Positions 2,548-31,440 of a DNA stretch of 56,751 bases are shown piece by piece. A program made the translations under genes and the position numbers. How positions within the stretch are numbered: position 1 is the first letter of the stretch; every line of letters starts with the position of its first letter. The DNA comes from a bacterium (GTDB lineage: Bacteria > Verrucomicrobiota > Kiritimatiellia > CAIVKH01), in contig JAUIHQ010000001.1 of the NCBI GenBank assembly GCA_030432155.1, positions 1 through 56,751 of the forward strand. Reading direction: 5' to 3'. The notes under the pieces were generated by a model that saw only the letters and a program-made list of their open reading frames with translations, was not told the DNA's origin and did no database searches.

Positions 2548-2886
2548 TCATTCAAATGTTATGTTTTTCATTGCCACCAATGGTTTCGGGGATTGAACAA
2601 CAAAGTCCGGGGATGGAAAGGGAACGGCGCCAACGCGGGATCCATCGACGGCAAATGATTCCGTCTTCCCACGCCACGCGATATCCAGTCGGGAAAATGT
2701 ATGACCGCAGTTGGGACAATACCCCCGGCAGGGATCATTCAATGCTCGCAAAGCACTGATGGCGCGACAATGGCGGCACTGCAGATACCCTGACGCCTTA
2801 CCGACCATAAGGCCGGTCGCGGCAACGGCGACCCCGGCGAGGCCAAGTCCGGCGAGAAAGGATCGTCTGGTCATACTGCTGCTCAT
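2548..2886 (-). CDS. small Tat-signal protein with 4-Cys zinc-ribbon-like motif
   Basis: Track ORF 2548..2943. The start at 2886 gives MSSSMTRRSFLAGLGLAGVAVAATG (twin-arginine motif RRSFL). It overlaps the stop of the 1090-aa ORF as ATGA (2883-2886). Cysteines: CRHC...CPNC. Confidence 0.55.
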   Translation of the reverse strand: MSSSMTRRSFLAGLGLAGVAVAATGLMVGKASGYLQCRHCRAISALRALNDPCRGYCPNCGHTFSRLDIAWRGKTESFAVDGSRVGAVPFPSPDFVVQSPKPLVAMKNITFE

Positions 2887-5800: not shown

Positions 5801-6155
5801 CGGTATGACGGAGATGGAAGAAGTACCGGACTTCACCGGCCGGAAACGGTTCGGCAGGGGTATAGCGCCAGATCGAGTCGATGCTGTTGGAACCGGCGTA
5901 CGTCATACGGTGCATGGACCAGTTCCCCGCCCCGGCCCGGATGCCGACCTCCACGAAAAGGTCCGAGGATCGATCGTTGACGAGGACTGTGAACACCCCC
6001 GGATTCCCCCCTTCGTGACGCAGAAACGACCCATACGCGCCCATCCATGAGGGCGCCGCCATGGATGAGGCGGGCATCAGGGAAACCATGATAACGATTG
6101 CCGTAACAATCGCCGCATGAATCACTTGGAATGTCTTGCTTGAGAGCTTTGCCAT
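2883..6155 (-). CDS. large secreted non-catalytic protein: CBM-like repeats + TSP3 loops + LamG domain
   Basis: 1090 aa with a signal-like N-terminus (...IVIMVSLMPASSMAAP). It has N-terminal ~100-aa repeats containing WPPDGELDAGEDLWIDAETWPRDAA and WDSNGGADYSF-type motifs. Asp loops: DADNDGLPDDWE, DADGDGLPDAWE, DPDGDGRTNDAEW, DADQDGLDDAWE, DTDRDGLLDIEEY. A LamG-like block reads WHHIVVTWNSTNLSCFLNGQLV...GKVDDVRVY. I recognise no hydrolase motif. Confidence 0.8.
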   Translation of the reverse strand: MAKLSSKTFQVIHAAIVTAIVIMVSLMPASSMAAPSWMGAYGSFLRHEGGNPGVFTVLVNDRSSDLFVEVGIRAGAGNWSMHRMTYAGSNSIDSIWRYTPAEPFPAGEVRYFFHLRHTETGDMWDSNGGADYSFTVAPDQPPVIRWAGHVTQWPPDGELDAGEDLWIDAETWPRDAASHALLFYKTQINDVVGIRELSRAGIRGNNDWWHVNLGSFPGGHVIDYWLSFIDHHTNQVSVGSQVTPFTAGVRAGLPLYWIGNTHHWPYNGMLSSQDSLWLNTETWPAGRGFSGSVEYSVEGGEWFREPVVNHAEANNNDLWHLQLGTLPPSSRLYYRMLITDGAGLVHASPEDAYHIADVLGDATDADNDGLPDDWETYWFGSTVYGGRDNPDGDGLMGITFDHGMEWALGTDPSASNDVAAIPLIWQPPRPVAGGLLKLSYALPPGTEMEPPVSFIVEAGITVLAVDAVHASERNRQEAVVVVPSAEELQVAITDARGHADDNRGVRWRIPVVPAGASLPDADGDGLPDAWERAHGLDPFDDGSWDESNGADGDPDGDGRTNDAEWRDGTDPRIPDSHSPDSDHDGLTDEEELTMGLPPHQWNAPVSSYQEMQLTGLGMSVAQTNMVLTAAYLWQIDVEVPESENAAALPSAGLAGDGFRVEGNDEVLSLGAGMTSGADDGAAPADAWPAGRYRITFNERLSRVDVLPIPGTGRLLQDPCTVSGRITSSKPLEYVPAARVIWEEELAVHLPLDVGGHGGVTPRNYGLTRIDAQFVDVWAAKNGSDGYGACYTKGLGRIALPPMDLGSRGTISCRVYPFDKPSRVRELFQADRTDPESFFIRMNAGGGIMVPGGFSDAEPGRRLDAETWHHIVVTWNSTNLSCFLNGQLVHAGSVERTPGFMLNPILGDGADPYLHGWNGKVDDVRVYYSESSESDVQHLMHIGYRRPDSVRIAREEASGLYQCTGIPVNVVGEFDAGVYSESLTEGYFSLQTGMPIRIVVDDNLEDIHFNIHPDADQDGLDDAWEWIHFGSRDFGYPYDDTDRDGLLDIEEYLNGTDPRQFDDYRAYTDPEEWKELGDGSAAYRNATRVVP

Positions 6156-14897: not shown

Positions 14898-17866
14898 TCG
14901 CGGCTGCGATCCTCGCCGATCCGTTGCATCGCCCCCTCCCCACCTATACCGCGGACGATGCGGAGCGGGCCTTGAGGGCCGACGGCATCGGCTGCCGCCG
15001 GATCACGTTGGAGGATCTCGGAACGCTGAGCGCCGAAACCTATTCCGCCCTGGTCATGCCGTACGTTGACGGTCCGTGGAGCCGAACCGAGCTCGATCAA
15101 CTGCAGCGGTACCACGCCGCGGGCGGCGGTCTCGTATTCCTTGGGGATACGCCCCATTTCGGACGATCGTACCCCTATCGGCATTCCTTTGCCCCCCAGC
15201 TTCGGATGACCCGTTGCCATGACCGGCTGACCCTGCACGGCCTGACCGATACCGGGCAGGACCTGCTGGGCGAGCTTCCGGATCTCGAAACGTTGCTCGG
15301 CATCGACATGCCCTGTGTCCGGACGTCGGCCTTTCCCCCCGATGAGTGCATCGACCTGGTATCTGCGTCCGGGGGATTCAAGGCGCTGAGCCCGGTGGTG
15401 CTGATCATCCGTCGCGACCCGGGGTTTCTCGGCGCCCGGGTGGCGGTGGCGGGTTTTGACGGCGGGGAGCCCCGGGAGAACATTCTCGGGGTGTGCGATC
15501 GGCCCTGGCGGTTTGATCCGGGATTGTTGAATCGCGATTGGGCCGGGGCGGATATCCTGGTCGCACGGCTTGTGCGGGCGGTGCAGCCCACCCGGATCGC
15601 AGCCGCAATCGAGGGACCGCCGGTGTCCGATGCCGGGTGTCCGGTGCGGGTAAAGCTGCGGGTCCGCAATCTGACCGGGGAAAGACAACGTGTCCGGACC
15701 TGCCTGAATGCTCCCGGGCCAGGTACACTGCTGGAGACGGATGCCATCGTCGAGGCGGGACAGCACATCGTGGCCGGGGAAGCCATGGTCACCTGTGCCC
15801 CCGGACCGGACCGGTGGTACGGTTCGGTCTCCACCTCCGAAGGCGTCACCACCGATGCAGTCAGCCGCGAGCTGTTCACCGGCCTCCCGCCGCCCCCGCA
15901 GGCGTTGGGCTTTTCGACCTACCGGGCGTTCGGCGAAGCCGGTGTGGATGATGCGTTCCGGACATTCATGCGGGAAACCGCGGTTCATGGCATGCAATAT
16001 GTCCGCATGTCCCTGGCGTGGGAAGACCTGGAACCGGAACCGGGCCGGTACGTATGGGATGTGCCCGACCGCCTGCTGGAGCTGACCGATGCATGCGGTC
16101 TCGCCGCGATGTTCTGGATGTTTCCCACCGCCCGCGGCTCGGGGCTCAGCGATGCCGGCATCCCGGCGTGGACGCTCCGCGAACCGGCCATCGACCGCGA
16201 CGGACGCCCGGGGAACTTCCCCTGTATCTGGAGCCCCTACTACCGCGAACGATACTTCGCCCTGTTGAACGAGCTGTGTCAGCGGTACGGTCGTGACGAC
16301 CGGCTCGCACGGTTCGTGTTTGATTTCGGCAATTCCGACTTCGCCTACACCTATCACTATTACGGCGACCGTCGGGATCTGTTTGACTATTCTCCCCACG
16401 AGCAGAGGGCATTTGCATCGTGGCTGGCCGGCTGCAACGTACCGCTGGACGAACTCGAACGCCGGTGGGGCCGGCCATTCGCAGACTACCGGGAGGTGCC
16501 TGTCCCCTACGCCGAGCAAACCGAGGCGTGGCTGCTCTACGAAGAGTTCAGGACGTGGGGGGTGCACCAGGGGATCAAGGAGGCGGCGGCGGTCATCGCC
16601 TCGCACTGCCCGGACAAGGCGCCGCCGGATTTTCCCGGGCACGGCCTGGGTTCGATCGCAGACCTGATCACGTACGTCTATGACGCAACCGCCAGGCACT
16701 GGAACGAGATCGGCGAACGGCCGGAGCACCTGACTGAGCTGCACAATGCCGGGGCGGAATGGGGCGGCGAAGCCTGGCAGGTCGGCGCAAAGTATATCGA
16801 CTACGACGAAGCTCTGTTCCAATCGGTCCGCCTCGGGGCGGCGTATTTCACCATTCCCGGACCCGACCTCGGCATCTGGGGCGAAGACCTCGGCCGAACG
16901 GCGATGATCCGCCGCACTCTCGCGGGATCGACCCGCGAGACACCGAGGATCGCCATCCTCGACCACATGGCATGGAATGACTGGACGAGCCTCGCCCAGG
17001 TCGGCAGCCGACTCGACCAGCCGGTCGATCTGATCGGCGCAACCTGCCGGTACAGGTATACCGGATACGACCTGCTGACCCTGCCGGCCCATGACGTGGC
17101 TGCGCACGACGGCCGCCGACGGTCCATTCTTCCCAGCGACTGCTCGTTTTATGAGGAGCTGCTGGATGCAGTGAACAGAGGGCTGAAGGTTCTGGTGTAT
17201 CCGGAAACCGGACGGGGGGATCCATCAAACCCGTTCCGGGAGGTTTGCGGCCTGACCGGGGTGGACTATGGCCCGCGCACCATCCGCACGATATCCTTCC
17301 CTGCATCCTGGGGCGGCGGCCTTGCCCGCGGCTACGCCCGGACGGTGAAGGCGTCCGCAGATGATGCCGCCTGGCTCACCGACAGTAACGGCGAGCCGGT
17401 GGCCGTGTTCTGTTCCCATGGGCAGGGCGGGTTTCTCCTCGTCGGTCATGACCAGGGCCGCGACTCCCTGGATGGCGATATCCGGTACGATCGTGATGCC
17501 GGCCTCGCCGGTCACACCCTGGCCAGGCTGCTCTGTCACCTTGATATCCAGCCCGGACGCATCCGGACCGGGCAAGCCTGCTGCTGGAAGGAATACATCG
17601 ACAGTCCGGCCGGCCCCTGCGTGCTGCTCTACAGCCATCGCGAATCCGAATCGCCGCTCGACCTTCAGATCCGATCCGATGGCCGCAGCGCCCATGCATG
17701 GGACCTTGCGACCGGTCACCGGTACGCCCTGGAGCCCGGCGAGGACCCCTCGCACCGGATTCTCCGCCTTACCCTTTCACCCCGGCGGGGGTACTACCTC
17801 CTGCTGGATCCGCCTGACCCGGCGCCACATCCGAACAGAACGAAGAAGGAGACATGCCATGCATAA
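14894..17866 (+). CDS. cytoplasmic clan GH-A (GH42/GH35-like) glycoside hydrolase domain protein
   Basis: The track ORF starts at 14588, inside the previous gene. The ATG at 14894 forms an ATGA overlap with the phosphatase stop. The central region VRMSLAWEDLEPEPGRYVWDVPDRLLEL resembles the GH42 TIM-barrel N-terminal motif. No signal peptide. Confidence 0.5.
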   Translation: MIAAAILADPLHRPLPTYTADDAERALRADGIGCRRITLEDLGTLSAETYSALVMPYVDGPWSRTELDQLQRYHAAGGGLVFLGDTPHFGRSYPYRHSFAPQLRMTRCHDRLTLHGLTDTGQDLLGELPDLETLLGIDMPCVRTSAFPPDECIDLVSASGGFKALSPVVLIIRRDPGFLGARVAVAGFDGGEPRENILGVCDRPWRFDPGLLNRDWAGADILVARLVRAVQPTRIAAAIEGPPVSDAGCPVRVKLRVRNLTGERQRVRTCLNAPGPGTLLETDAIVEAGQHIVAGEAMVTCAPGPDRWYGSVSTSEGVTTDAVSRELFTGLPPPPQALGFSTYRAFGEAGVDDAFRTFMRETAVHGMQYVRMSLAWEDLEPEPGRYVWDVPDRLLELTDACGLAAMFWMFPTARGSGLSDAGIPAWTLREPAIDRDGRPGNFPCIWSPYYRERYFALLNELCQRYGRDDRLARFVFDFGNSDFAYTYHYYGDRRDLFDYSPHEQRAFASWLAGCNVPLDELERRWGRPFADYREVPVPYAEQTEAWLLYEEFRTWGVHQGIKEAAAVIASHCPDKAPPDFPGHGLGSIADLITYVYDATARHWNEIGERPEHLTELHNAGAEWGGEAWQVGAKYIDYDEALFQSVRLGAAYFTIPGPDLGIWGEDLGRTAMIRRTLAGSTRETPRIAILDHMAWNDWTSLAQVGSRLDQPVDLIGATCRYRYTGYDLLTLPAHDVAAHDGRRRSILPSDCSFYEELLDAVNRGLKVLVYPETGRGDPSNPFREVCGLTGVDYGPRTIRTISFPASWGGGLARGYARTVKASADDAAWLTDSNGEPVAVFCSHGQGGFLLVGHDQGRDSLDGDIRYDRDAGLAGHTLARLLCHLDIQPGRIRTGQACCWKEYIDSPAGPCVLLYSHRESESPLDLQIRSDGRSAHAWDLATGHRYALEPGEDPSHRILRLTLSPRRGYYLLLDPPDPAPHPNRTKKETCHA

Positions 17867-19043
17867 AACGATACGGAACCATATCCTCACCATCGCGTGC
17901 GCCTGCACCACCGCGGCCCTTTCCGCGCAGGCGATGACCTGGAACAGCGAGAACCAAGCCGATGCCGACACCCTGCTGCACTACACGTTCAACGGCACCG
18001 GGACCAACATCACGGACAACGGTCCGAACGGGTACGACAACAACATCTCCAACCTGGCAACCCGCGCGGGCGCGCCGGCCGACTGGCTGAATGTTCCGGC
18101 CGGAGATTATCTTGCCCAACGGAATCCGGCGGACGCCCTGAACATGTCGGCGAAGGTGAACATCACCAACATTGACTATAACAAGGGATTGACGATCAGC
18201 CTCTGGTACCGGGCCCTCGACGGCGCCGGGGTAACCAATGCCGGAGAGCTGTTCCGCTTCGAGGGTCCGGGCATTCTGCCCCGGGTCAGCCTCGTCACAG
18301 ACAACTTCGGTGCGACCGGACTCGGCCGTCTCCGGCTGACCGCCAACATCACCGGCACCAACCTTGTCGAGTTCGGCACCAACAGCATCTGGCGGCATTG
18401 TGCCGTCGTGTATGACCCCCTGGACGGCGACGCCTCCAACGGCGGGGAATGGCAGTTCTATCTCGACGGCGTGTCCTCCACCACGATCATACACACCAAC
18501 GACCTGACCGCCGTGACATCGGCCGAGTTCAAGGCCGGGGACAACATCTTCAACAACGCCCCCCTTCGAAACGGAGACCTGGACGAGGTGTTCATTCATA
18601 ACGGCATCATCACCGACTTCACCGACGGCTATGCCGGAACACCGGGGAATGATGACGATGCGGATGGCATCCCCAACGACTGGGAGACGCTATACTTCGG
18701 GTGCTCGACCTGCGCCACCGGCACGGATGATCCCGATCTCGACGGATCCATCACGTTTGATGAATACGTGTTCGACACCAATCCGACCAGTACCGCCTCA
18801 TTCTACAACAACCAGATGGTCACGATGACTGGCGCAGGTGTCGTATCCCTGACCGCCGGCCCCCCGACATCCACCGGGCGGATCTATGACGTGTATGTAT
18901 CCGACGAGCTGCAGGACGGATCACAGGCATGGAACCCGGTGGGACTGGATGTTGCCGGTCTCGGCGCCGGAACGCCGGTCGTGCTGACCGTCACCAACGA
19001 GGGGGCCGGACGGTTTTACCGCACCGGCGTCACGGTTCCGTAG
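17859..19043 (+). CDS. secreted LamG-domain protein with TSP3 pair and conserved C-terminal beta module
   Basis: The ATG at 17859 gives MHKTIRNHILTIACACTTAALSAQA (signal). LamG-like: GLTISLWYRALDG...WRHCAVVYDP...GDLDEVFIH. Asp loops: DDDADGIPNDWE and DDPDLDGSITFDEY. It ends ...GRFYRTGVTVP. Paralog of 24988..25959. Confidence 0.75.
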   Translation: MHKTIRNHILTIACACTTAALSAQAMTWNSENQADADTLLHYTFNGTGTNITDNGPNGYDNNISNLATRAGAPADWLNVPAGDYLAQRNPADALNMSAKVNITNIDYNKGLTISLWYRALDGAGVTNAGELFRFEGPGILPRVSLVTDNFGATGLGRLRLTANITGTNLVEFGTNSIWRHCAVVYDPLDGDASNGGEWQFYLDGVSSTTIIHTNDLTAVTSAEFKAGDNIFNNAPLRNGDLDEVFIHNGIITDFTDGYAGTPGNDDDADGIPNDWETLYFGCSTCATGTDDPDLDGSITFDEYVFDTNPTSTASFYNNQMVTMTGAGVVSLTAGPPTSTGRIYDVYVSDELQDGSQAWNPVGLDVAGLGAGTPVVLTVTNEGAGRFYRTGVTVP

Positions 19044-22000
19044 CATCCGGCAATAGCAGCCCGAACGCGGCCATGCTCCGGGCCTGCGGCACCACCGTGC
19101 CCTCGTTCATCACGATGGCGAAGTGCACATCCACATAGGTGTACAACGGTGCGAAATCCGGCCGGTACCGGGGATACGCGGTCTCCGCCACCCGGTAGCC
19201 TTCCGCACCCTGGTGAGGTCCCTGAACCTGCATGCCGGGGGCGACTTCGCCGGTGGGATTGTAGCGGCTGTTGTGAAGGGATCCCCTCACCGTACGCTCA
19301 CCCAGCCCGGTGATCCAACTGAGACCGAGCGGATTGGCGCCGAGGGTGTTATCGGCGGTCTTGATCATCCAGTAGAGGTAGGTCTCATCGCCGGTCAGGG
19401 TGTAGGCCCAGTGGATCGGGTCGAGCCAGCTCTGGTAGGCCCCGGTTCCCCAGGTGATCGGCGCCCAGGGATGGCGGATGAAGCCGTAGGCCATGGTGGA
19501 ACAGTACTGGATGAACTGATCGGCCCGGGCGAGAATGGCCTTCCGGATCCGCGCCTGCAGGTCCGGATCGACAACCTCCGCCGGACATTTCACATACGCC
19601 CACGCCGCGGCCCGTTGATCGTAGAGCCGATGCTTTTCCAGCTCCGCATCGGGTTGGGTGGACCACACAGCGGCCTCGGCAAAGGCCTCGCGATACCGGG
19701 CCTTGCCCGTCGTATGGAGCAGTTCCGCCGCGGCATACGCCTTGGGTGAGATGAAGAAGGTCGCGTATTTCGCGGGATCACCCAACTGCTCCGGGGGATG
19801 CTGCAACCCCCAGGCAAATGCCCGCTCCGCGCGGTCAAGGTATTCGGCCGCCCGGTCGGACATGCCGAGCGATTTCAGAATCCGCGCCGCCTGGGCGAAC
19901 GTTCCCGCAAATTCAAATGAGGCCCCGGCATCCTTGGCGAACGCGTAATCACCAAGGGTATCCAGCTCCACCGTCTGCATGAAGTTGGGATCGCCATTGG
20001 ACTCGGTGCCGCCCCGCACCCCGCCATCGTCCTCCTGGAGGCCGGTCCAGATACGCAGGGCCCAGCCCGCTTCATCGAGAATGTCGGGAATGCCGTTCCC
20101 CGCCTCGGGAATGTTGAGCTGGCCGTCATAAAACTTCCGCGGCGCCATCTCGTAGGCGTTCATGAGAATTTGCGCGACTTCAATGTGCGACCGGGGATTG
20201 TAGTCGCCGGCATCGTGATGGCCGCCATGCGCCTGAATGGCAATGGCCTTATCGCCCCAACGGGTAGCGAGAACGGCGATCTCGTCCATCGTCAACGGAC
20301 GACTGTAGACCCGGACATCGTCGAAATATTTGCCGCCGGCCTCGTCACCGGTCAGCGCCCCGACATGGAAGGTCGCGTCATCCAGTGGTTCGGTCCGGCC
20401 CGCGAGGGCGGTGTCGCGGACCTCGCCGTCCACGGTCATCGCAACCCTTGCCGGACCCTGCGCCTGCGGCGTGACAATCAGCGCGATATGATGCCATTTG
20501 CCGTCGGACAACCGGCCGATGTCCAGCGGATCATCCGTGCTTCCCACCGATGCCCGGATGACGCCCCAACCCGCAGTGACCTGGATCCGGCTGAGGTGGA
20601 CGTTGTTGCTCATGCTCCCGAACAGCGAGCCGGAGAACTTGATGCCGCCCTCCAGCTTCACCCAGGTACTCAGGGTAAAGCCGCGGGTCACATCGAGCGG
20701 CAGGTCGGGAACCAGGCCCCCGTTGGGCTGCGCGGTGGCGGTCGGGCCCAACGCGAGATTGTTCCCGGGAAGCAGCTCACGGACCCGCTCAAACGGCTGG
20801 CCTTCTCGCGCCGGTTGGAGGTCATATCCGTTCCCGGTCACATCCTTGAGGGACCCATCCATCGGCCAGTACGCGAGCAGAGCGGGGTCGCGGTTCAACG
20901 CCTGGATCGCGGGGTCGGGTTCGGCATCGGTCAACGCGCTGTAATCCACATACGCCGGCAATTCCTTGTGGGCAGCCCGCTCCCCTTCGACCCGCGACAT
21001 CGTGGTCGGTACGATTCCTTCGATGTGGCAGGCGATCCGGCGCCACGAGGAATAGGGAGGCCCAAGCTCGATGCCGCAACGCTGGGCAAAGACGCCGTAG
21101 GACTGGACATCAAACGCCTCCCGATACACATCCTCTCCCACGCGGAACGGATGGCTGCGGCCGACACCGGGAACGGTGATGAAATACTCACCCCCGGTAC
21201 GAAAATCCGAGAAGTCGAGCCGGTACACATTCTCGCCGGAGTGATCGACGTTGTGGACGCCCTCATTCATCGTGCCCGACCGGTGGATCAGCTCGGAACG
21301 GCCGGAGAACACAATGGCGCCGGTTGCCGCATCGCGGACATGAAACACCGGCGGTTCGCTCAGCATCAGCGCCGGCCCGATATTTTCCGCCACCACCGGC
21401 TCACCGCCGGCCAGGGCTTCCCGGAACATCGCGTCCATCGACTGACCGGCATGGACCGGGCGGCCGGTATCGGCCTCGGGAAACGATCCCATCCAGAGAC
21501 CGACGTACGCATGCTTCACCGGACCGCCGGCGAGATAGCCGACCTGGTTGACCTTGAGCGAAGGAGACCGGGTTTCCGCTTCGTGAAACGTGAACGACGC
21601 CTCCCTCAGGCCCGCACATGCGTCTTCGGCGATGCGGACCTGCACCCGGTCGCCGTCCGTCCACGCATGGCCGGTCTGCAGATACACACGGTGAGTCGGT
21701 ATGGCGGAGAACGGCCAGCCCACCGGGATATACGCATCCACCCAGGTCCGGCGACCCATCCGCAACACCTTCTCCGCCTGCCCGTTCACCGTCACCTCAC
21801 AAGCGCCCGCCTTCATCCCCAGCTCGGGTGAGAATCCCGGACCGAGATCCAGCTCGAGAATGCCGGCGCCAACCGGACGGATCGCCCGAAGGCCGGTCAC
21901 CGCGGCATCAATGCGAGGATCCCGCGGTTCCCCCTGCCCCTCTTCTCCATAGACGAACGACCCCGCGGTATGGGCTGCCGTCACCATCGTCCCCGCGACA

Positions 22001-22422
22001 CCCTGGGCCATGATGCTGTATCGCACACCCGGCCGCATGGGAAAAGGCAGGGTGAGGAGGACATCCTGACGCCGAAAGACATCCGGCCGGCTTCCCTTCA
22101 CCCCGGGGAACTCGACCTTTTCCTGCACCGCGGCCGCAGACGGGCGCACAAACCGGTCGTAGGCATACCGCTCATCCTCATCGCTGATCACCCGGTATGC
22201 AGCCGGATTTCCCGCCTCCCCGGTCACGCTGATGCCGATCCGCACGAGGACTTCGCGGTCCGCCAGCGGAACCGCCTCCCGCACGCCGTAGGTCCGGCGC
22301 ACCTCGATGCGGGGATCGGGAAGCGAACGGAAGCCTTCAAGGGTCATCGCGGACAGGCCGGAAACCGCGCCGATCGCGAACAACAGGAGGGGAACGATGC
22401 GAAGATACACAGGTGTTTTCAT
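19030..22422 (-). CDS. secreted GH9 family glycoside hydrolase with nested LamG domain
   Basis: The ATG at 22422 gives MKTPVYLRIVPLLLFAIGAVSGLSA. GH9-like motifs: FAQRCGIELG...CHIEG, HGGHHDAGDYNPRSH (DAGD), IPEAGNGIPDILDEAGWALRIW, ITGLGERTV..., VMNEG. A LamG-like block of ~210 aa lies between CH and DAGD. Confidence 0.75.
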   Translation of the reverse strand: MKTPVYLRIVPLLLFAIGAVSGLSAMTLEGFRSLPDPRIEVRRTYGVREAVPLADREVLVRIGISVTGEAGNPAAYRVISDEDERYAYDRFVRPSAAAVQEKVEFPGVKGSRPDVFRRQDVLLTLPFPMRPGVRYSIMAQGVAGTMVTAAHTAGSFVYGEEGQGEPRDPRIDAAVTGLRAIRPVGAGILELDLGPGFSPELGMKAGACEVTVNGQAEKVLRMGRRTWVDAYIPVGWPFSAIPTHRVYLQTGHAWTDGDRVQVRIAEDACAGLREASFTFHEAETRSPSLKVNQVGYLAGGPVKHAYVGLWMGSFPEADTGRPVHAGQSMDAMFREALAGGEPVVAENIGPALMLSEPPVFHVRDAATGAIVFSGRSELIHRSGTMNEGVHNVDHSGENVYRLDFSDFRTGGEYFITVPGVGRSHPFRVGEDVYREAFDVQSYGVFAQRCGIELGPPYSSWRRIACHIEGIVPTTMSRVEGERAAHKELPAYVDYSALTDAEPDPAIQALNRDPALLAYWPMDGSLKDVTGNGYDLQPAREGQPFERVRELLPGNNLALGPTATAQPNGGLVPDLPLDVTRGFTLSTWVKLEGGIKFSGSLFGSMSNNVHLSRIQVTAGWGVIRASVGSTDDPLDIGRLSDGKWHHIALIVTPQAQGPARVAMTVDGEVRDTALAGRTEPLDDATFHVGALTGDEAGGKYFDDVRVYSRPLTMDEIAVLATRWGDKAIAIQAHGGHHDAGDYNPRSHIEVAQILMNAYEMAPRKFYDGQLNIPEAGNGIPDILDEAGWALRIWTGLQEDDGGVRGGTESNGDPNFMQTVELDTLGDYAFAKDAGASFEFAGTFAQAARILKSLGMSDRAAEYLDRAERAFAWGLQHPPEQLGDPAKYATFFISPKAYAAAELLHTTGKARYREAFAEAAVWSTQPDAELEKHRLYDQRAAAWAYVKCPAEVVDPDLQARIRKAILARADQFIQYCSTMAYGFIRHPWAPITWGTGAYQSWLDPIHWAYTLTGDETYLYWMIKTADNTLGANPLGLSWITGLGERTVRGSLHNSRYNPTGEVAPGMQVQGPHQGAEGYRVAETAYPRYRPDFAPLYTYVDVHFAIVMNEGTVVPQARSMAAFGLLLPDATEP

Positions 22423-22460
22423 GGGCGACTCCCTGCCGCCATGCCGGCGGTCTGCAGTGA

Positions 22461-22489
22461 TTGACAATCCATGGCCTTCTGCATATAAT
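22461..22489 (+). promoter_or_regulatory. consensus sigma70-type promoter
   Basis: TTGACA (22461-22466), exactly 17 nt, TATAAT (22484-22489). It sits in the divergent region between the GH9 gene (-) and the pseudopilin operon (+). Confidence 0.5.
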
Positions 22490-22602
22490 ATAACATAAAC
22501 TAATTGTAAAGAAACCGTTTGAATCCGGACGACCTCATGCATGCGATCATGGCACACGGCAGGATGAGCGAGCGAGCCAACAACCTCCCCGCGGACAGGG
22601 GG

Positions 22603-23364
22603 ATGTCGAGAGCAGCGTTTACGCTGATCGAGCTGCTGGTGGTCATGGCCATCCTCGGCATCCTCGCCGGCCTGCTGATACCTGCCGTCACCTCGGTCCT
22701 GGACAAGGCCGCCTTCACGAAATGCAAGAGCAACATGCGGCAGATTGGAATCGCGCTTGCGGGATTTCAGTCGGATCATGACGGCCGGTTTCCGGTGACC
22801 AAGTTTGCGGAGTTTCGCGGCGGGGATTACGAGTTGTATACCCAGCTCGCGGACTATCTACCTTTCGGTACGGTGAAGAACAGCTCGGGGAATCCGACGG
22901 AATGGATCGACCCGGACTACACCTGCCCCCTTTACCGTAAACGCAACCGGTCCTATGCCCCGGACGGCCTGGCCTACGGCTCCTATGCATATCGGCATGC
23001 CTTTCAAGGGGACGGCAATCCGGGCAACGATGATCCGCCGACCGCCCGGGAAAGCCGCATCGGCGGGTGGACATCGGATGCTCTCCGCGGCGACCCATCG
23101 GCCGGTGCGTGGTCCATATACCGCTGGTCCCCCAGCCAATACGGGGTCATCTGGGACAACGGCTGGGACGATGCCACCCCGAATACCACCCCTCATGATT
23201 ACGATGGTATTCCGGCTCATGACGACCGGTTCAACGTCCTGATGGCCGACCTGCGCCAGCGCGACTTCCGCTGGGTGCATGAAAACGGCGTGATCCCCAA
23301 CGGATCCACGCCCAACGTACCGCCGGAATTGCGGGACGACCAGTATGGTATCGCGGCGCCCTGA
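22603..23364 (+). CDS. prepilin-type N-terminal cleavage/methylation domain protein, H-X9-DG-like (pseudopilin)
   Basis: AFTLIELLVVMAILGILAGLLIPAV is the classic type IV pilin-like N-terminus. The C-terminal HDDRFNVLMADL resembles the H-X9-DG motif. The start is ambiguous: the track gives TTG 22519, with ATGs at 22537, 22564 and 22603. Confidence 0.8.
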   Translation: MSRAAFTLIELLVVMAILGILAGLLIPAVTSVLDKAAFTKCKSNMRQIGIALAGFQSDHDGRFPVTKFAEFRGGDYELYTQLADYLPFGTVKNSSGNPTEWIDPDYTCPLYRKRNRSYAPDGLAYGSYAYRHAFQGDGNPGNDDPPTARESRIGGWTSDALRGDPSAGAWSIYRWSPSQYGVIWDNGWDDATPNTTPHDYDGIPAHDDRFNVLMADLRQRDFRWVHENGVIPNGSTPNVPPELRDDQYGIAAP

Positions 23365-23365
23365 C

Positions 23366-24991
23366 ATGAAAACCTCCGGTCATAGCCTGCGTACGACCCG
23401 CGGGGTTCCTTTCACCTTCCAGGCGGACGATGGGGCCGGCCTGCGGAACCAGTGGCCCGGGGTTCTGACCCACACGCACTTGCTGAAGGGTGAATTGCTG
23501 CCGCCTGAGAATTACCGCAATCTCGCAACATGGGCATCCGACCGGGGCCTCGGCGCCATCGGCGTTGGATCACCGTTTCTACCGGAAACCGCCGAAGCAT
23601 ACCGGCGCTATGAGGACCGTGAACGGGATGTGTATTACCGCGGGGGCGTGGATTACGAAGCCCTGACCCAGCGGGACAAGGTCCGGGCGCTGATGGATGA
23701 GCTGAACCGGCTGAGCGGGGATGTCTGCTTCTATCTCGACAACGAAACCCCCAAGGCCCGGTTCGGCCACATGTGGTGGATCGGCTGGCATCACGACTTT
23801 CCCGAGTGGCACGATTACGACCAGCCGTTTGACCGCTGGATGTGCCGGGAGCAGCAGGCCGATGATGTGAATCCCGAGCCGATGCGGTATGAGCGCCGGC
23901 CGTACATGCAGATTCTGCACGAACAGCGGGCCCGCGACGCGCTCGGCATCTGGGCGCACCCCACAAGCTGGTGGACCACCGACCGGGGAGCATTCGTCAC
24001 CAACATCGCATCGGAAATGCCGGCCCACCTTGCCGCTGAAGGCCGGATCGACGGGCTCGTGGTGATGGGCTACGATGCGTACCGCCCATCCTACCTCGAC
24101 CTGTGGTTCAGCCTGCTCAATGCCGGCTACCCGGTGACCGCGTTTGCCGAAACCGACATCGACCTTTCCACCCGCAGGCTGTGGGATCTCGAGGAGCTCT
24201 ACCTGACCCATGTCCCGTCCGCAGAAGGGAAACTCGACCTGGGCGGTATCCGGTTGAACGCCATGGCGGGATGCGGATATGTATCCAGCGGCCCCTTCCT
24301 GACCCTTCGGGTGGATGGTCAACCCATGGGATCGGTCATACGGAGCGAACCGGGATCCATGCACAGTGTCGAAGTCACCGTCGCCCCCGCGGAAGGCGAA
24401 CACCTGCTTTCCCGAGTCGAAGTCGTAAGCCGGCAGGGACGCGTTGAGTGGAGCCTCAACCAGGCGGAGGCGGGAACCTACCGGTTCGAGCTGGAGGGAA
24501 ATACGGAACGGGGGTACCTCGTGTGCCAGGCCTTCGGAAGGAACGATCACCCGGAGCGAACACCGGCCGCGGCGATACGGCATTATGCGGTTACGAATCC
24601 CGTGTACATGAAAGCGAGGGGAGAAAACTTCCCCGCCCCCCTTGCCACCAATCTCCGCCTGACCTGTCCTGCTGATTCCGGTTTCGCGGGCGGCTCGCTC
24701 CGCATCCTTCATCATGATCGCGATGAAACCCTTCGTCTGCACGCGGGTATGTTGGAACTTGAGATCCCGACGGCATCTCTTCTGCACCTGAAGCGCCCGG
24801 ACGGCACGGAGTGTGTGCTGGATCTCGTGGAAAGCAATCCGCGGGCAAGGAAGCTTCAGCAGTACCTGTATCGCGGCCGGTTCCTGGCGGACTACGAAGG
24901 ACTCGAACCGGGGCAGGTGCCGGCGGAAGCGTTTCAGGTCGACGCCTTTCGCGAAGCGCTGGGCGAACATGACATCACTCTTGGGGCATGA
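23366..24991 (+). CDS. hypothetical protein, possibly PHP/metallohydrolase-like
   Basis: 541 aa. The ATG lies 1 nt after the previous stop. His-rich motifs THTHL, GHMWWIGWHHDF, WAHPTSWW and AETDID loosely resemble PHP/CehA-type metal sites. The function call is weak. Confidence 0.45.
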   Translation: MKTSGHSLRTTRGVPFTFQADDGAGLRNQWPGVLTHTHLLKGELLPPENYRNLATWASDRGLGAIGVGSPFLPETAEAYRRYEDRERDVYYRGGVDYEALTQRDKVRALMDELNRLSGDVCFYLDNETPKARFGHMWWIGWHHDFPEWHDYDQPFDRWMCREQQADDVNPEPMRYERRPYMQILHEQRARDALGIWAHPTSWWTTDRGAFVTNIASEMPAHLAAEGRIDGLVVMGYDAYRPSYLDLWFSLLNAGYPVTAFAETDIDLSTRRLWDLEELYLTHVPSAEGKLDLGGIRLNAMAGCGYVSSGPFLTLRVDGQPMGSVIRSEPGSMHSVEVTVAPAEGEHLLSRVEVVSRQGRVEWSLNQAEAGTYRFELEGNTERGYLVCQAFGRNDHPERTPAAAIRHYAVTNPVYMKARGENFPAPLATNLRLTCPADSGFAGGSLRILHHDRDETLRLHAGMLELEIPTASLLHLKRPDGTECVLDLVESNPRARKLQQYLYRGRFLADYEGLEPGQVPAEAFQVDAFREALGEHDITLGA

Positions 24992-25959
24992 GGGGAAACA
25001 TGGACAGGAACAGAAGGAGCGGAAACATGAGAATGCAATTCAGGGCAGCATGGGGAATGATTGCTGCGGCCTTGCTGACGGCCGCAACACCGGCCGTCGC
25101 ACTTCAGTGGTCGGCCGAAAACGGGGTCTCCACCGGCACCACGGTGGCGCTCTACCACTTCAATGGTTCGGGCACCAACCTGATCGACAGCTCGCTCAAC
25201 GGCTTTCACATGCACACGTCAAATGTGAATGTGCGGGCCGGGGCGTCGCCGGGCTGGTTGGTCGTACCCAGCGGGGATTATCTTGAACAGGGGCCAAACG
25301 GGCAAACCACCAACGAGAACATCGCACGTGCGGTCAACCTCAGCGGCATCGATTTTGATCAGGGGTTGACGGTAAGCCTGTGGTACCGGGCGCTCGATGG
25401 AACCGCACCCTACACGACCAATGGAGGCGCCATCGTGGGTATTGAAGGTGCGGGAGCTTTTCCGCGCACATCCGTAGGGTCCGATGCGTTCGGGTCCGCC
25501 GGCCTTGGCCGCATGCGCCTGACCGGCGGGGGCGGCGGGACCGCCACCAACCTCGTGGATTTCGGCCCCACGTCGGTCTGGCGTCACCTTGCCGTGGTGT
25601 ACGACCCGCTGAACGGATCCACGGCGGATGGGGGGCGCTGGCGTTTCTATCTCGACAACAGCGAGGTTTCGACCGTCGATGATCCAAACAACTATTCCGC
25701 GGTCAGTTCGTTTGATTTCAAGGTCGGAGATTCGGTGTTCAACAACACGCGGCTTCAGCTCGGCGCCATCGATGAGGTTCTGGTGGAGAACCAGGTGCTC
25801 ATTGATTTCTCCGCTCAATCCGGGGGGGATGCCGCCATTCCCACCCTGTCGGAATGGGGGATGATCATCCTGTTTGCGGCGCTGGTCGTGTTCGGCCTGA
25901 AACGTATCAAGGCCATGAATACCGCCGGCGGGCAGGATAAAGCTCCGGCCGGGGCCTGA
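24988..25959 (+). CDS. LamG-domain protein with IPTLxxWG-CTERM sorting signal
   Basis: ATGA overlap with the previous stop. Signal: ...AAWGMIAAALLTAATPAVA. LamG-like: GLTVSLWYRALDG...WRHLAVVYDP...GAIDEVLV. C-terminus: IPTLSEWGMIILFAALVVFGLKRIK (25837 onward), i.e. motif + TM + basic cluster. Confidence 0.8.
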   Translation: MRGNMDRNRRSGNMRMQFRAAWGMIAAALLTAATPAVALQWSAENGVSTGTTVALYHFNGSGTNLIDSSLNGFHMHTSNVNVRAGASPGWLVVPSGDYLEQGPNGQTTNENIARAVNLSGIDFDQGLTVSLWYRALDGTAPYTTNGGAIVGIEGAGAFPRTSVGSDAFGSAGLGRMRLTGGGGGTATNLVDFGPTSVWRHLAVVYDPLNGSTADGGRWRFYLDNSEVSTVDDPNNYSAVSSFDFKVGDSVFNNTRLQLGAIDEVLVENQVLIDFSAQSGGDAAIPTLSEWGMIILFAALVVFGLKRIKAMNTAGGQDKAPAGA

Positions 25960-25976
25960 CCGGACCGGGGCGGGGT

Positions 25977-26492
25977 ATGACGATTCTGCGGCATCCGGGC
26001 CTCCGCTTTCTGGTGGTGACCGCGATTCTGTTTGTGGTGTTGCAGCGCGCATACATCGCATTCCGGGATTCCGACGACAACCGTTTGAACCATGTCGTCA
26101 ACGCGGAAGTCAGTGCAACCATCATCAACCTCATTTCTCCGGAGCGAGGGGTGGAAGCCGTCGATGGCGTACTTCGCGGCGGCGCGATTCCCATCGACAT
26201 ACGAAAGGGGTGCGAAGGCTTCGAGGTGATGATTATCATGATCGCGGTCATGCTCGCGTTTCCCATGCCGCTGGTATACCGGATCACCGGCATGATCGCG
26301 GGTTGCCTGTTCATCTATGTGTTGAACATCATCCGCATTGTCTCGTTGTTCTACATCACGTTGAAACGTCCCGAGTTCTTTGACGCCGCCCACATATCCG
26401 TCTGGCAGACCATCATCATCATGCTGGCCACCGGCTTTTTTCTCTGGTGGATCTCGTGGGCAACGCGGACAACGAAAGCGGACCCGGCATGA
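25977..26492 (+). CDS. xrtH: exosortase H-like (small exosortase/archaeosortase family transpeptidase)
   Basis: 171 aa and polytopic. Conserved-context residues: Cys (RKGCEGFEVMII), Arg (NIIRIVSLF) and His (AAHISVW). It lies 17 nt downstream of the IPTLxxWG-CTERM protein. Confidence 0.75.
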   Translation: MTILRHPGLRFLVVTAILFVVLQRAYIAFRDSDDNRLNHVVNAEVSATIINLISPERGVEAVDGVLRGGAIPIDIRKGCEGFEVMIIMIAVMLAFPMPLVYRITGMIAGCLFIYVLNIIRIVSLFYITLKRPEFFDAAHISVWQTIIIMLATGFFLWWISWATRTTKADPA

Positions 26493-27166
26493 CCGCATTG
26501 TATCCACCCGACACCGCCCCCCTCTCGGTCCGCGTCCGGGCCGCCGCACTGCGCCTTCTGCCGGCCTACATCATCCTTTTGACCGCGTCCCTGATCGCAC
26601 CGGCCCTGCTTCCTTCGATCATTGCCGCAACCCTTCCCGGACTATCCGGGCTGAGTCCGCATTACCGCATCCAGTCGGTTCAGGTCGGCAGGGAGATCAT
26701 CGATTTCAAAATCGAAAACCGGGACTTCACGCGGCTGAACGGACCGGGCGGGCGCCCCGGCCCCACGGTCAGCGTGGACGGATCACACCAGACCAGCGCG
26801 GTTAATGTCTACCCGGTGACGACCTTCGCCCTCGTCATCGGCCTCGCCATGTCACCCCGCCGCCTGGTTCGCGCGATGGGCATCGCGGCGGCCTGCGTAT
26901 GCGTTCTTATGGCCATAGACTGCCTGGTCATGGCGGCATGGATCAGTACCAAGGCCACCATGCAGGCAGCGCCCCAGGTACTTTCAGCCATGCCGCAGAC
27001 AGACGCAAACCGCGAGGCCGTCCTCGCCATCGCAGCCGGACAGGACCGTCTGACCTGGCTGAAATCCTTCATCAGCACCGGCGGACGGCAATTTCTATCC
27101 TTCATAAGCGCCGGCATCGCCCTCTTGGCCTCCGGTGCGGTAAGGGTTGGACCTCTCCGCACCTGA
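26489..27166 (+). CDS. exosortase-associated membrane protein (hypothetical)
   Basis: The ATG at 26489 overlaps the xrtH stop (ATGA). About 4 TM segments (LRLLPAYIILLTASLIAPALL, VYPVTTFALVIGLAM, AMGIAAACVCVLMAIDCLVMAAWI, FLSFISAGIALLASGAV). Confidence 0.6.
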   Translation: MTALYPPDTAPLSVRVRAAALRLLPAYIILLTASLIAPALLPSIIAATLPGLSGLSPHYRIQSVQVGREIIDFKIENRDFTRLNGPGGRPGPTVSVDGSHQTSAVNVYPVTTFALVIGLAMSPRRLVRAMGIAAACVCVLMAIDCLVMAAWISTKATMQAAPQVLSAMPQTDANREAVLAIAAGQDRLTWLKSFISTGGRQFLSFISAGIALLASGAVRVGPLRT

Positions 27167-30200: not shown

Positions 30201-31440
30201 CGGGAAGTACATCCCCCACTTCAAAAAATGGAACCAGCTCACGGTGTGGTTCAACGATCCGCCCAACTCCACCGGCATCCTCGAGTTCTACAGCCGGATC
30301 AACCGGGCGCGCCTGGCATCGCCGGCCCTGCGCAGTCAGAACCGGTACTTCCTTCGGCGGACCGCCATGGGCGACAACGAGGATATCTTTGCCGTGGCCA
30401 AGGCTGAGATCCCCGGTGCGGGACCGGCCGCCGGTGATGTCGTCCTCGCGTTCGCCAACATGCTGGAGCACGGCGGAGCCCATGCCGCGGAGCAGGATAC
30501 CTACGACCTGAAGGCGCCCTGGGCCTTTCTCGGTCTCGACACCAACAAAACTTACACGGTCAGGAACCTCGCTTCCAGCGATCCCGACGCCGTCCTGCCC
30601 GGCTGGCCACGCACCGGTCAGGATCTATGGGACAGCGGCATCTTTGTCCAGCTCCAGGCCGATATCGGCCAGGCCATCACCAACGATGGCGCCCTCGTGC
30701 AATACCTGAAGCTGGAGGAGATTGATGTCAACGATGCACCGGTGATCACCCTGCCGGGACCGCACACCCTGGCCGTCGGCGCCACCACGAACATCCCGGT
30801 CAGCGTAACCGATGCGGATCTGGATCCGGTGACCACCAACGTGACCGTATCGCCGGCGGGCTCGATCTTCACCAACGGCGTTCTGACCTGGATGGCCGGG
30901 GCGGCAGACGAGAACACCACCAACGAAATCCGCGTCGTGGCCGATGACCAGCAGGGCCAGCCCAACAGCATCGTGACCAACAGCACCTTCATCATCGTGC
31001 CGTTCGATATCGACGGCGATCTGCTGGGCGATGGCTGGGAATTCAGCAACTTCGGCACCCTGACCAACGGGGCGGCCGGCGACAACGACGGCGACAACTC
31101 CCCCAATATCGACGAATACAACGCGGGCACCGCGCCGACCAATGCCCAGTCGGTCTTCAAGGTGACCGAGGTGGAGAATGCCGCCGGTCAAACGGTGAGG
31201 AATGTGTCCATCGCCACCCAGCCCGGCAAGGTGTATACGATCTACTTCGCCGACGGGAATCCCGAAGACGACGCAACCTGGCAGCCGTTTGCGGATGGCA
31301 GCGACGGCGTCGGCACCTACACCGAGACAAATACCGTTCCGGCGACCTTCGTGTTTACCGACGATGAAAGTGCATCCACTACCGGGGGTGCGCCGGCGGA
31401 AGGCCAACGCAACTACCGGATCATTGTGAATGGACCCTGA
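27250..31440 (+). CDS. giant secreted GH13 alpha-amylase-family enzyme with accessory domains
   Basis: 1396 aa with signal MMPTTIRRLAAALLMMTGTALA. GH13 regions: I DGVFNHTA, II GIDGLRCDFGQGLP, III FMFMAETLDG, IV LNLTSHDE. Downstream are a cadherin/Ig-like block (VNDAPVITLP...), Asp loops (DIDGDLLGDGWE, DNDGDNSPNIDEY) and a C-terminal beta module ending NYRIIVNGP. Confidence 0.85.
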   Translation: MMPTTIRRLAAALLMMTGTALAWTGNEIDFPNTANGFPDPATSGGSVKYTGPDGSPEWFRYTQTATNIYSPFAFKMTTGNTWDNDYGGNAVFPKNEVDIMYYQPLGDANSELAGGASNGFRYVFTAKDPPLSDAYISVMEVSDDPVFIEQAGGTVGTIASNGVIEMNILFFTNPPPEQKAYFRVSTDDFATWTLIEAPITADTASAVYTSTVSSTVTTKWYAFTSTASSNYLANTNSFTIDALTLSWDNRQGTNFLVKVNPRDVAFVYHDGNRVVFGSNVQFYAKAGYANGDGSGRWANFGAVYYTTDGSEPSGSKGVPSGSSMARPLSFSFMEEDESPIGDAMWFVGTVTNLPAFTTIKYKIGLWYDAGSPERFADYQSVTNDTTYSFQLGVSGAPSLTVNGLEADYTTSKFWIDEIAGDTEEVVVYYRPGIAAVPDNVEIFSNLNRRDYTEADSDTNGIPDAIRPPDGNTITTNTTDGYFMAWPMTAAEPGVYVWTGVVSKCGAYRLTARYQTNGTWRYYTENGRRDHAVVASPKKILDQTMYELNTLTIEAQSPDEGGRSTFVDLLSADEGDDDGYDPFNLSYLDSLAANCLWFQPIHPNGEERVENDSATQSPYTPGSPYATKDYFAIGRFYGSDATEADALSEFTNFVAKCDIWTGEVGTINVMLDGVFNHTAWDAEFGQGVVDLGLKQNPGDSGSPLLEANEFIGEHRAYWYSDGGNGNPDYCDEADFWNSAYDNDFAVAPDRGDFGKWNDVAELYFGRYAALVCLNPQDNGSYLNEGDWYDYGSQMPGVIELWKLFAYYPEYWIKKTGHSGTNSFVLAEDDKGIDGLRCDFGQGLPPQLWEYIINRTRSIKWNFMFMAETLDGGKPGYRSNRHFDILNENLVFQFTQAKVNNSFDLYNALEQRENAYNGGTILLNLTSHDEILPDDDPWVTASRYGVVGSVDGIPMIMYGQEHGIKNYQSDQSVGWDDGFIYHELNFGKYIPHFKKWNQLTVWFNDPPNSTGILEFYSRINRARLASPALRSQNRYFLRRTAMGDNEDIFAVAKAEIPGAGPAAGDVVLAFANMLEHGGAHAAEQDTYDLKAPWAFLGLDTNKTYTVRNLASSDPDAVLPGWPRTGQDLWDSGIFVQLQADIGQAITNDGALVQYLKLEEIDVNDAPVITLPGPHTLAVGATTNIPVSVTDADLDPVTTNVTVSPAGSIFTNGVLTWMAGAADENTTNEIRVVADDQQGQPNSIVTNSTFIIVPFDIDGDLLGDGWEFSNFGTLTNGAAGDNDGDNSPNIDEYNAGTAPTNAQSVFKVTEVENAAGQTVRNVSIATQPGKVYTIYFADGNPEDDATWQPFADGSDGVGTYTETNTVPATFVFTDDESASTTGGAPAEGQRNYRIIVNGP

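Follow-up and report, generated by a model that had tools for sequence, protein, structure and literature searches.

A probable compact C-terminal sorting module of an IPTL-tagged LamG protein, an XrtM-like miniature exosortase and a coupled membrane partner in a Kiritimatiellia bacterium

Results

Three genes of a candidate sorting module

We analysed a stretch of 56,751 nucleotides (nt) from a bacterium of the Kiritimatiellia (Verrucomicrobiota, lineage CAIVKH01; GenBank assembly GCA_030432155.1, contig JAUIHQ010000001.1, positions 1 to 56,751 of the forward strand), hereafter the window, and describe a three-gene group in it that probably forms a compact C-terminal sorting module. Positions 24988-27166 are filled by three co-directional open reading frames (ORFs) on the plus strand. 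They encode a predicted secreted LamG (concanavalin-A-like) protein of 323 amino acids (aa) with an IPTL-CTERM domain (24988..25959, +; denoted the cargo), an exosortase-family protein of 171 aa (25977..26492, +) and a membrane protein of 225 aa (26489..27166, +; denoted the partner). The cargo stop codon occupies 25957-25959 and the exosortase ATG lies at 25977, leaving a gap of 17 nt. The ATG of the partner at 26489 overlaps the exosortase TGA at 26490-26492 in an ATGA junction (GGCATGACC), and a second ATGA at 24988-24991 fuses the stop codon of the preceding gene, which encodes a 548-aa protein, to the cargo ATG. From the 548-aa gene to the partner, the series of junctions thus reads ATGA overlap, 17-nt gap, ATGA overlap. 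The sequence details given in the initial annotation, namely the 17-nt gap, the ATGA coupling, the tag, the 171-aa length of the exosortase and a cargo tail of ~15 aa, all held when the ORFs were read again.

The cargo carries an IPTL-type tag

Residues 117-271 of the cargo match PF13385 (Laminin_G_3) with 37 bits (cut-off 27.6). The N-terminus contains a hydrophobic segment at residues 21-39 that ends in AVA-LQ and reads like a signal peptide. At the other end of the protein, the motif IPTLSEWG (residues 284-291; 25837..25860, +) directly abuts, with no spacer, the tag helix MIILFAALVVFGL (residues 292-304), which is followed by the basic cluster KRIK (residues 305-308; helix and cluster together 25861..25911, +). 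Kyte-Doolittle hydropathy peaks at 3.04 over 13 residues. In tags that membrane-embedded sorting enzymes cut, the signature motif typically lies directly against the helix (bioRxiv 10.1101/2023.06.07.544157), and we presume that IPTLSEWG is both the recognition and the cleavage site. The tag passes two curated models, TIGR04174 (23.5 bits, cut-off 20.5) and PF18203 (25.0 bits, cut-off 20.8), which together with the PF13385 match bears out the earlier proposal of an IPTL-CTERM-type domain behind a LamG domain. The cargo has the motif, the helix, the basic cluster and the N-terminal hydrophobic segment, but continues beyond KRIK for 15 residues (AMNTAGGQDKAPAGA; 25912..25956, +) that are predicted to be cytoplasmic.

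Within the window the tag stands alone. The cargo motif is the only IPTL-like motif in all six frames, a helix-plus-basic C-terminus is confined to the cargo among the ORFs of at least 150 codons, and the 56.7-kb contig therefore holds one tagged protein. The closest counterpart of the cargo is found in the related locus L001, a metagenome-assembled genome (MAG) of the Verrucomicrobia (GCA_018814445.1). Its C-terminus consists of NIPTLSEWGMIIL..., a helix, RRLL and a tail of 13 residues. The motif is identical in the two proteins, as are the 12 residues IPTLSEWGMIIL, at an overall identity of only 41%; the sequences of the two tails are unrelated. The cargo of a third locus, L014, has almost no tail. 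A comparison of the cargo with the sequences in the PDB gave no significant match (best E=0.06). Membership in the midcut-by-XrtH family (NF033207) was considered and rejected: the score was 26.8 bits against a cut-off of 45, and the tag region alone aligned.

The exosortase scores as XrtM-like rather than as XrtH

The 171-aa protein has four transmembrane (TM) segments and passes the exosortase/archaeosortase signature TIGR04178 with 55.4 bits (cut-off 23). Its presumed nucleophile, Cys79, lies in the motif K-G-C-E-G (codon 26211..26213, +), Arg120 in N-I-I-R-I (codon 26334..26336, +) and His139 in D-A-A-H (codon 26391..26393, +). Cys/Arg/His is the proposed catalytic triad of the superfamily (bioRxiv 10.1101/2023.06.07.544157). 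None of the three residues varies when 5, 12 or 72 relatives are aligned (72/72 in the largest alignment), and their positions also align with those of true XrtH sequences. An exosortase-family protein with Cys, Arg and His next to the cargo, as first proposed, is thus confirmed. An AlphaFold2 model built on the 72-homologue alignment reached a predicted local distance difference test score (pLDDT) of 93.8; a fold search with this model against the PDB returned no match at E<=0.001.

The subtype is a different matter. The best subtype score was obtained with XrtM (TIGR04300), at 91.5 bits, below the cut-off of 125; XrtX followed with 73.5 bits (cut-off 170), XrtH (TIGR04177) with 66.8 bits (cut-off 86) and XrtF with 43 bits. 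A genuine XrtH from locus L003, used as positive control, scored 198.3 bits on TIGR04177. The initial annotation had assigned the protein to exosortase H, and had itself named a better score for another subtype as the outcome that would count against this label; XrtM and XrtX both score above XrtH, and the assignment is not supported. We therefore refer to the protein as an unclassified, XrtM-like exosortase.

Relatives of the enzyme were sought among 1.84 billion cluster representatives by exhaustive search with HMMER, which yielded 2740 of them at E<=0.001 and only 8 at E<=1e-30, so the close group is small. The XrtM score exceeded the XrtH score in 18 of the 21 closest sequences. None of the 21 reached the XrtM cut-off, close relatives with genomic context scoring 68-114 bits, and three barely passed that of XrtH (P0008 with 88.3, P0162 with 89.1 and P0163 with 88.9 bits). 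The names given to these relatives are inconsistent: JGI calls P0158 XrtM, while UniRef calls P0169 'Exosortase H (IPTLxxWG-CTERM-specific)'. A neighbour-joining tree of 161 small exosortases was two-sided, with 72 sequences including the window protein on one side and the true XrtH proteins on the other. Seven of the 72 reach the level of the XrtM cut-off in an XrtM scan that covered the window's side of the tree. The split between the XrtM and XrtH sides was recovered in 74 of 100 bootstraps, with a transfer support of 0.98 (72-sequence subsample). From these sequence comparisons we take the enzyme to be a probable member of an unnamed group that, among the small exosortases, falls with XrtM rather than with XrtH. 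A scan of genome contigs with the exosortase alignment returned only the L001 MAG, and two scans of metagenome contigs, which started from the exosortase and the cargo, respectively, returned nothing.

The partner represents a family without a database model

The partner contains four hydrophobic segments, at residues 28-46, 103-121, 132-150 and 202-220. Together with the ATGA overlap, these substantiate the description of a translationally coupled 4-TM protein behind the exosortase. Directly before the last TM helix lies the motif F194-I-S-T-G198-G-R200 (27068..27088, +). In an alignment of eight partner sequences only F194, G198 and R200 are invariant, giving the pattern F-x3-G-x-R, which is usually GGR; the same motif is present in the partners of loci L015/L016 and L017. 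Members of the family are multi-TM proteins of 205-250 aa that carry the form F-(L/I)-S-x-G-G-R ahead of the final helix. A single-sequence structure model of the partner was poor (pLDDT 52).

No match to the partner was found in NCBIfam or Pfam at E<=1. This includes the XrtH-associated membrane protein, the identity implied by the initial annotation: NF041730 gave nothing at E<=1, and the precomputed annotation contained no PF28117 (XrtH_assoc). The same models detect the genuine protein, with 107 bits for NF041730 in the gene downstream of the exosortase in L003 and a precomputed PF28117 match in L012, another true XrtH locus. BLASTP found no similarity between the partner family and XrtH_assoc, and profile-profile alignment (hhalign) gave a probability of 0.6%. 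The implied family label of the partner is therefore as little supported as that of the enzyme; these comparisons indicate a family separate from the XrtH-associated protein, one that has neither a Pfam nor an NCBIfam model.

Homology within the family is readily seen between the window partner and that of L001 (BLASTP E=4e-20, 30% identity); a word-based homologue search with the window partner returned only the query itself. A physical link between enzyme and partner is provided by P0048 (402 aa), a natural exosortase-partner fusion whose C-terminal half matches the L001 partner over the whole length (E=4e-10).

A second fusion of a small exosortase with a C-terminal multi-TM domain, P0030 (445 aa), was also observed. 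Its C-terminal half matches neither the GGR-motif partner family nor XrtH_assoc, which suggests a third type of partner. From P0048, P0030 and the XrtH_assoc pairs it follows that small exosortases pair repeatedly with different multi-TM proteins.

Related loci keep the enzyme and partner together

A homologue of the GGR-motif partner adjoins the exosortase in nine of nine independent loci, the window included. The partner genes lie at 2406-3161 in L001 (on the strand opposite to the exosortase), 6530-7282 in L006/L007, 6290-7021 in L008/L009, 665-1417 in L010, 1503-2120 in L013 and 5291-5905 in L014, and are also present in L015/L016 and L017. The family is thus apparently obligate.

The nearest relative, L001, has kept all four genes from the 548-aa protein to the partner in a changed order and strand arrangement. 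Identities to the window proteins are 50% for the 548-aa protein, 49% for the exosortase, 41% for the LamG cargo and 30% for the partner. Large genes follow the module both in the window and in L001, but they show no homology to each other and were for this reason not counted as module members. In L014, an S8 peptidase gene directly follows the partner, and its product ends in VPTLTEWAAMLMAMTLFAMIARRRMEE (VPTLTEWA, a helix and RRR). In L013, the partner is followed by an endonuclease that ends in VPLPFWVVPLLGSLLGWRMLARRKS.

Three further features of these loci were recorded. At 2406-2527 of L001, the 3' ends of the partner and exosortase genes overlap convergently by ~121 nt, which is either a real antisense arrangement or an artefact of assembly or of start and stop assignment. 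A GH94 gene (glycoside hydrolase family 94, cellobiose/chitobiose phosphorylase-type) adjoins the pair in L001 (1-145), L006 (7190-9580) and L010 (1328-3718); none was seen among the window ORFs scanned. Finally, genes that flank true XrtH/XrtH_assoc pairs (L003 1708-2610 and L012 4190-4909) encode a C-terminal helix and basic cluster without IPTLxxWG, their endings being ...GPNWQNIALLALGATALILGLIGWVVGRRK and ...VPLSPQLSLFIALALAALGIRVLKRQRELRA, respectively. XrtH may therefore read more than the canonical motif.

Neighbouring genes

All genes from 22519 to 27166 run in the same direction and are joined by overlaps or short gaps. The first of them encodes a prepilin-type N-methylation protein (22519-23364, +) with a weak, sub-threshold match to DUF1559 (21.5 bits, cut-off 23.3). 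Just upstream of it lies a promoter-like site, TTGACA-17-TATAAT (22461..22489, +), which matches the consensus in 12 of 12 positions; it is a consensus match only, and two such sites were found in the region against 1.6 expected by chance. Given its place ahead of the gene string that ends in the module, we regard it as a candidate operon promoter.

The 548-aa protein (23345..24991, +), whose family is unassigned, represents a fourth gene that is conserved in the neighbourhood: it shares 50% identity over 511 aa with the gene that adjoins the exosortase in L001 (207-1805, -). It matched neither Pfam families nor PDB sequences. Sequence reading revealed no N-terminal hydrophobic segment or obvious signal peptide, and the protein is therefore probably cytoplasmic. 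It contains the His-rich motifs THTH, GHMWWIGWHHD and AHPTSWW, and it could act as a metal-dependent hydrolase with a functional link to the module.

The wider surroundings are rich in carbohydrate-related genes. Downstream of the module lie two alpha-amylase-family genes and a gene with a GH31 domain and a carbohydrate-binding module (CBM20); a GH9+LamG gene and a GH42-like gene lie upstream. The alpha-glucan utilisation locus of the initial annotation is thus borne out only in part, and by its gene content we would class the locus as a mixed region of carbohydrate-active enzymes rather than a clean alpha-glucan locus. Laminin_G_3 domains occur in four window proteins (2883-6155, -; 17361-19043, +; 19030-22440, -; 24988-25959, +), one of which is fused to GH9; the C-terminal sorting tag is found only in the small protein at 24988. 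The GH9+LamG, GH42-like, alpha-amylase, GH31+CBM20 and LamG surroundings suggest that the LamG domain of the cargo is a glycan binder.

Large secreted glycan-active neighbours of the module were seen to end alike, with NYRIIVNGP in the window (31399-31440), FYRIRAWRGP in L001 (8400-8439) and FYQVRVVRAE in L006 (4700-4745). These endings could be a shared C-terminal element, the window and L001 proteins having no homology otherwise.

Discussion

Comparison with known systems

The module resembles, and departs from, several characterized or predicted systems. With XrtH/IPTL-CTERM (TIGR04177, TIGR04174, NF041730; PF18203, PF28117) it shares a tag of IPTLxxWG, helix and basic cluster, an enzyme of ~165-170 aa with four TM segments and the same Cys/Arg/His positions, and a multi-TM gene that overlaps the 3' end of the exosortase gene. 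It also shares the co-occurrence with an IPTL-CTERM protein, one being encoded 17 nt upstream of the window exosortase. It differs in that the enzyme remains below the XrtH cut-off (66.8 versus 86 bits) and falls on the other side of the tree, and in that no homology between the partner and the XrtH-associated membrane protein could be detected. The sequence also points to a host of the PVC group rather than of the proteobacteria, given the prepilin N-methylation motif with its sub-threshold DUF1559 match in a neighbouring gene and the Verrucomicrobia MAG as nearest relative. XrtM (TIGR04300) is the subtype with the best model score, seven XrtM sequences of cut-off level lie on the same side of the tree and the close relative P0158 bears the JGI name XrtM; the window protein (91.5 bits, cut-off 125) and its relatives with genomic context nevertheless all score below the cut-off.

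The only experimental precedent for a unit of enzyme and partner is the XrtF pair of Flavobacterium johnsoniae (Fjoh_1448/Fjoh_1449, TIGR04128), in which deletion of either xrtF or the neighbouring associated gene causes the same defect in surface colonisation and biofilm formation (PMC10936215). There too, a multi-TM protein is encoded beside a small exosortase. XrtF itself scores 43 bits here, and its associated protein is not homologous to the window partner, as the latter matched no NCBIfam model. A further difference is that XrtF has no known substrate tag, whereas the window offers an adjacent candidate cargo. ArtA/PGF-CTERM and exosortase A/PEP-CTERM belong to the same superfamily and share the proposed triad and the tripartite logic of the tag. 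For ArtA, removal of the PGF-CTERM helix, coupled to lipid attachment, has been demonstrated (bioRxiv 10.1101/2023.06.07.544157). Both enzymes are much larger, the PEP-CTERM exosortase having at least eight TM helices (bioRxiv 10.1101/2023.06.07.544157); they act on many substrates with different motifs, and we found no dedicated partner of this kind described for them.

Proposed mechanism

We consider it likely that the three genes form a compact C-terminal sorting module, composed of the IPTL-tagged LamG cargo, the XrtM-like exosortase and a coupled partner that is not XrtH_assoc, and that the exosortase probably cuts the cargo tag. The cargo would be exported through Sec by means of its N-terminal signal peptide, and the tag helix would hold it in the inner membrane. 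The 171-residue exosortase would recognise IPTLSEWG at the periplasmic face of the membrane, where the enzyme triad, the GGR motif of the partner and the cargo motif are all predicted to lie. Cys79, aided by Arg120 and His139, would then attack at or next to IPTLSEWG, with removal of the helix, KRIK and the tail. The LamG domain might be released, or be transferred to some acceptor and so reach the cell envelope, where it would serve as a glycan binder. Throughout, the exosortase would act together with its ATGA-coupled 4-TM partner; that the partner is required is suggested by three observations, namely the adjacency of the two genes, the P0048 fusion and the XrtF precedent.

Several points weigh against this interpretation. 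The TIGR04174 match exceeds its cut-off by a small margin and covers model positions 1-20 of 27 only, and a tail of 15 residues after KRIK is atypical for a terminal sorting tag. The membrane topologies predicted for enzyme and partner derive only from hydropathy and charge distribution. In the tree, the clade of 21 sequences that surrounds the window protein was recovered exactly in 0 of 100 bootstraps (transfer bootstrap expectation, TBE, 0.55), and in view of this its exact monophyly is not claimed. Literature searches on XrtH, XrtM and IPTL-CTERM returned nothing relevant and no experiment on XrtH- or XrtM-type systems. The cargo could instead be processed by another exosortase encoded elsewhere in the genome, for example a true XrtH, and further substrates may exist. 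Lastly, an IPTL-like cargo adjoins the pair in three of the nine loci (the window, L001 and L014) and is thus no constant neighbour within the group. Set against the nine of nine loci that hold the partner, this count makes enzyme and partner the invariable pair, with cargo adjacency frequent but not fixed.

Alternative explanations

The last of these points bears on whether the LamG protein is a dedicated substrate. In the remaining six loci no IPTL-like cargo gene was found within about 6 kb, and the sole close orthologue of the cargo occurs in the nearest relative, where shared ancestry could explain the adjacency. The exosortase and its partner might accordingly serve many substrates across the genome, the LamG neighbour being residual synteny. 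We regard this as somewhat unlikely: the adjacency has survived rearrangement of gene order and strand between the window and L001, the distant L014 has a different cargo beside the pair, its S8 peptidase with the VPTLTEWA tag, and the window genes are translationally coupled. Such an arrangement would in any case alter the number of substrates only and leave the mechanism unchanged. The uncertainties of the tag itself raise another possibility, that the cargo C-terminus is an ordinary, uncleaved membrane anchor and the exosortase-like protein acts elsewhere or is inactive. The long tail, the short HMM match that passes its cut-off by ~3 bits and the fact that we found no report in the literature of cleavage of any IPTL-CTERM protein would fit such an anchor. 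Yet all 12 residues of IPTLSEWGMIIL recur unchanged in an orthologue of 41% identity, unlike the tail sequence; the enzyme has retained its catalytic triad; and the tag passes two independently curated models. We hold this explanation to be very improbable.

It is also improbable, though less markedly so, that the module is a divergent but genuine exosortase H system, for which the cut-off is too strict in a sequence of the PVC lineage and whose partner is a highly diverged XrtH-associated protein. NCBIfam and UniRef annotation does link IPTL-type tags to XrtH, one relative bearing the UniRef name 'Exosortase H (IPTLxxWG-CTERM-specific)' (P0169); protein size and the order of exosortase and overlapping multi-TM gene match the true XrtH loci L003 and L012; and P0008, P0162 and P0163 (88.3, 89.1 and 88.9 bits) just exceed the XrtH cut-off. 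The window protein itself, however, scores 66.8 bits against this cut-off of 86, where a true XrtH reaches 198; the XrtM model outscores that of XrtH in 18 of 21 close relatives; the two sides of the tree separate in 74 of 100 bootstraps, with XrtM proteins of cut-off level on the side of the window; and comparisons by BLASTP, HMM and hhalign all failed to relate the partner to XrtH_assoc.

Implications

The earlier interpretation was right in kind, with a tagged cargo, an exosortase and a coupled partner, and wrong in the family label of the enzyme and, by implication, of the partner. What is new is that one compact module combines an IPTL-type tag with a miniature exosortase of an XrtM-like group that has no name and with a partner family for which no model exists. 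Nothing here contradicts current ideas about exosortases. For annotation, the results point out a conserved partner family that lacks a Pfam or NCBIfam model, and a populated gap between the XrtM and XrtH models in which close relatives are named inconsistently.

More tentatively, we propose that IPTL-type tags may be read by two lineages of miniature exosortases, which would be tied to two unrelated multi-TM partners, XrtH to XrtH_assoc and the XrtM-like enzymes to the F-x3-GGR family. In that case the obligate subunit that sets acceptor or destination might be the partner and not the enzyme, and the three-gene module with its single soluble LamG cargo could be a minimal system for reconstituting exosortase chemistry. 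If it is true that IPTL-like tags serve outside XrtH, the rule that IPTL-CTERM means XrtH needs revising. What exosortases do chemically has yet to be settled in the literature, as has the question whether a single transpeptidation reaction both cleaves and attaches (bioRxiv 10.1101/2023.06.07.544157). With a 171-residue enzyme, one adjacent soluble cargo and one coupled partner, the module would be about the smallest system in which the cleavage site, the acceptor and the role of the partner could be tested.

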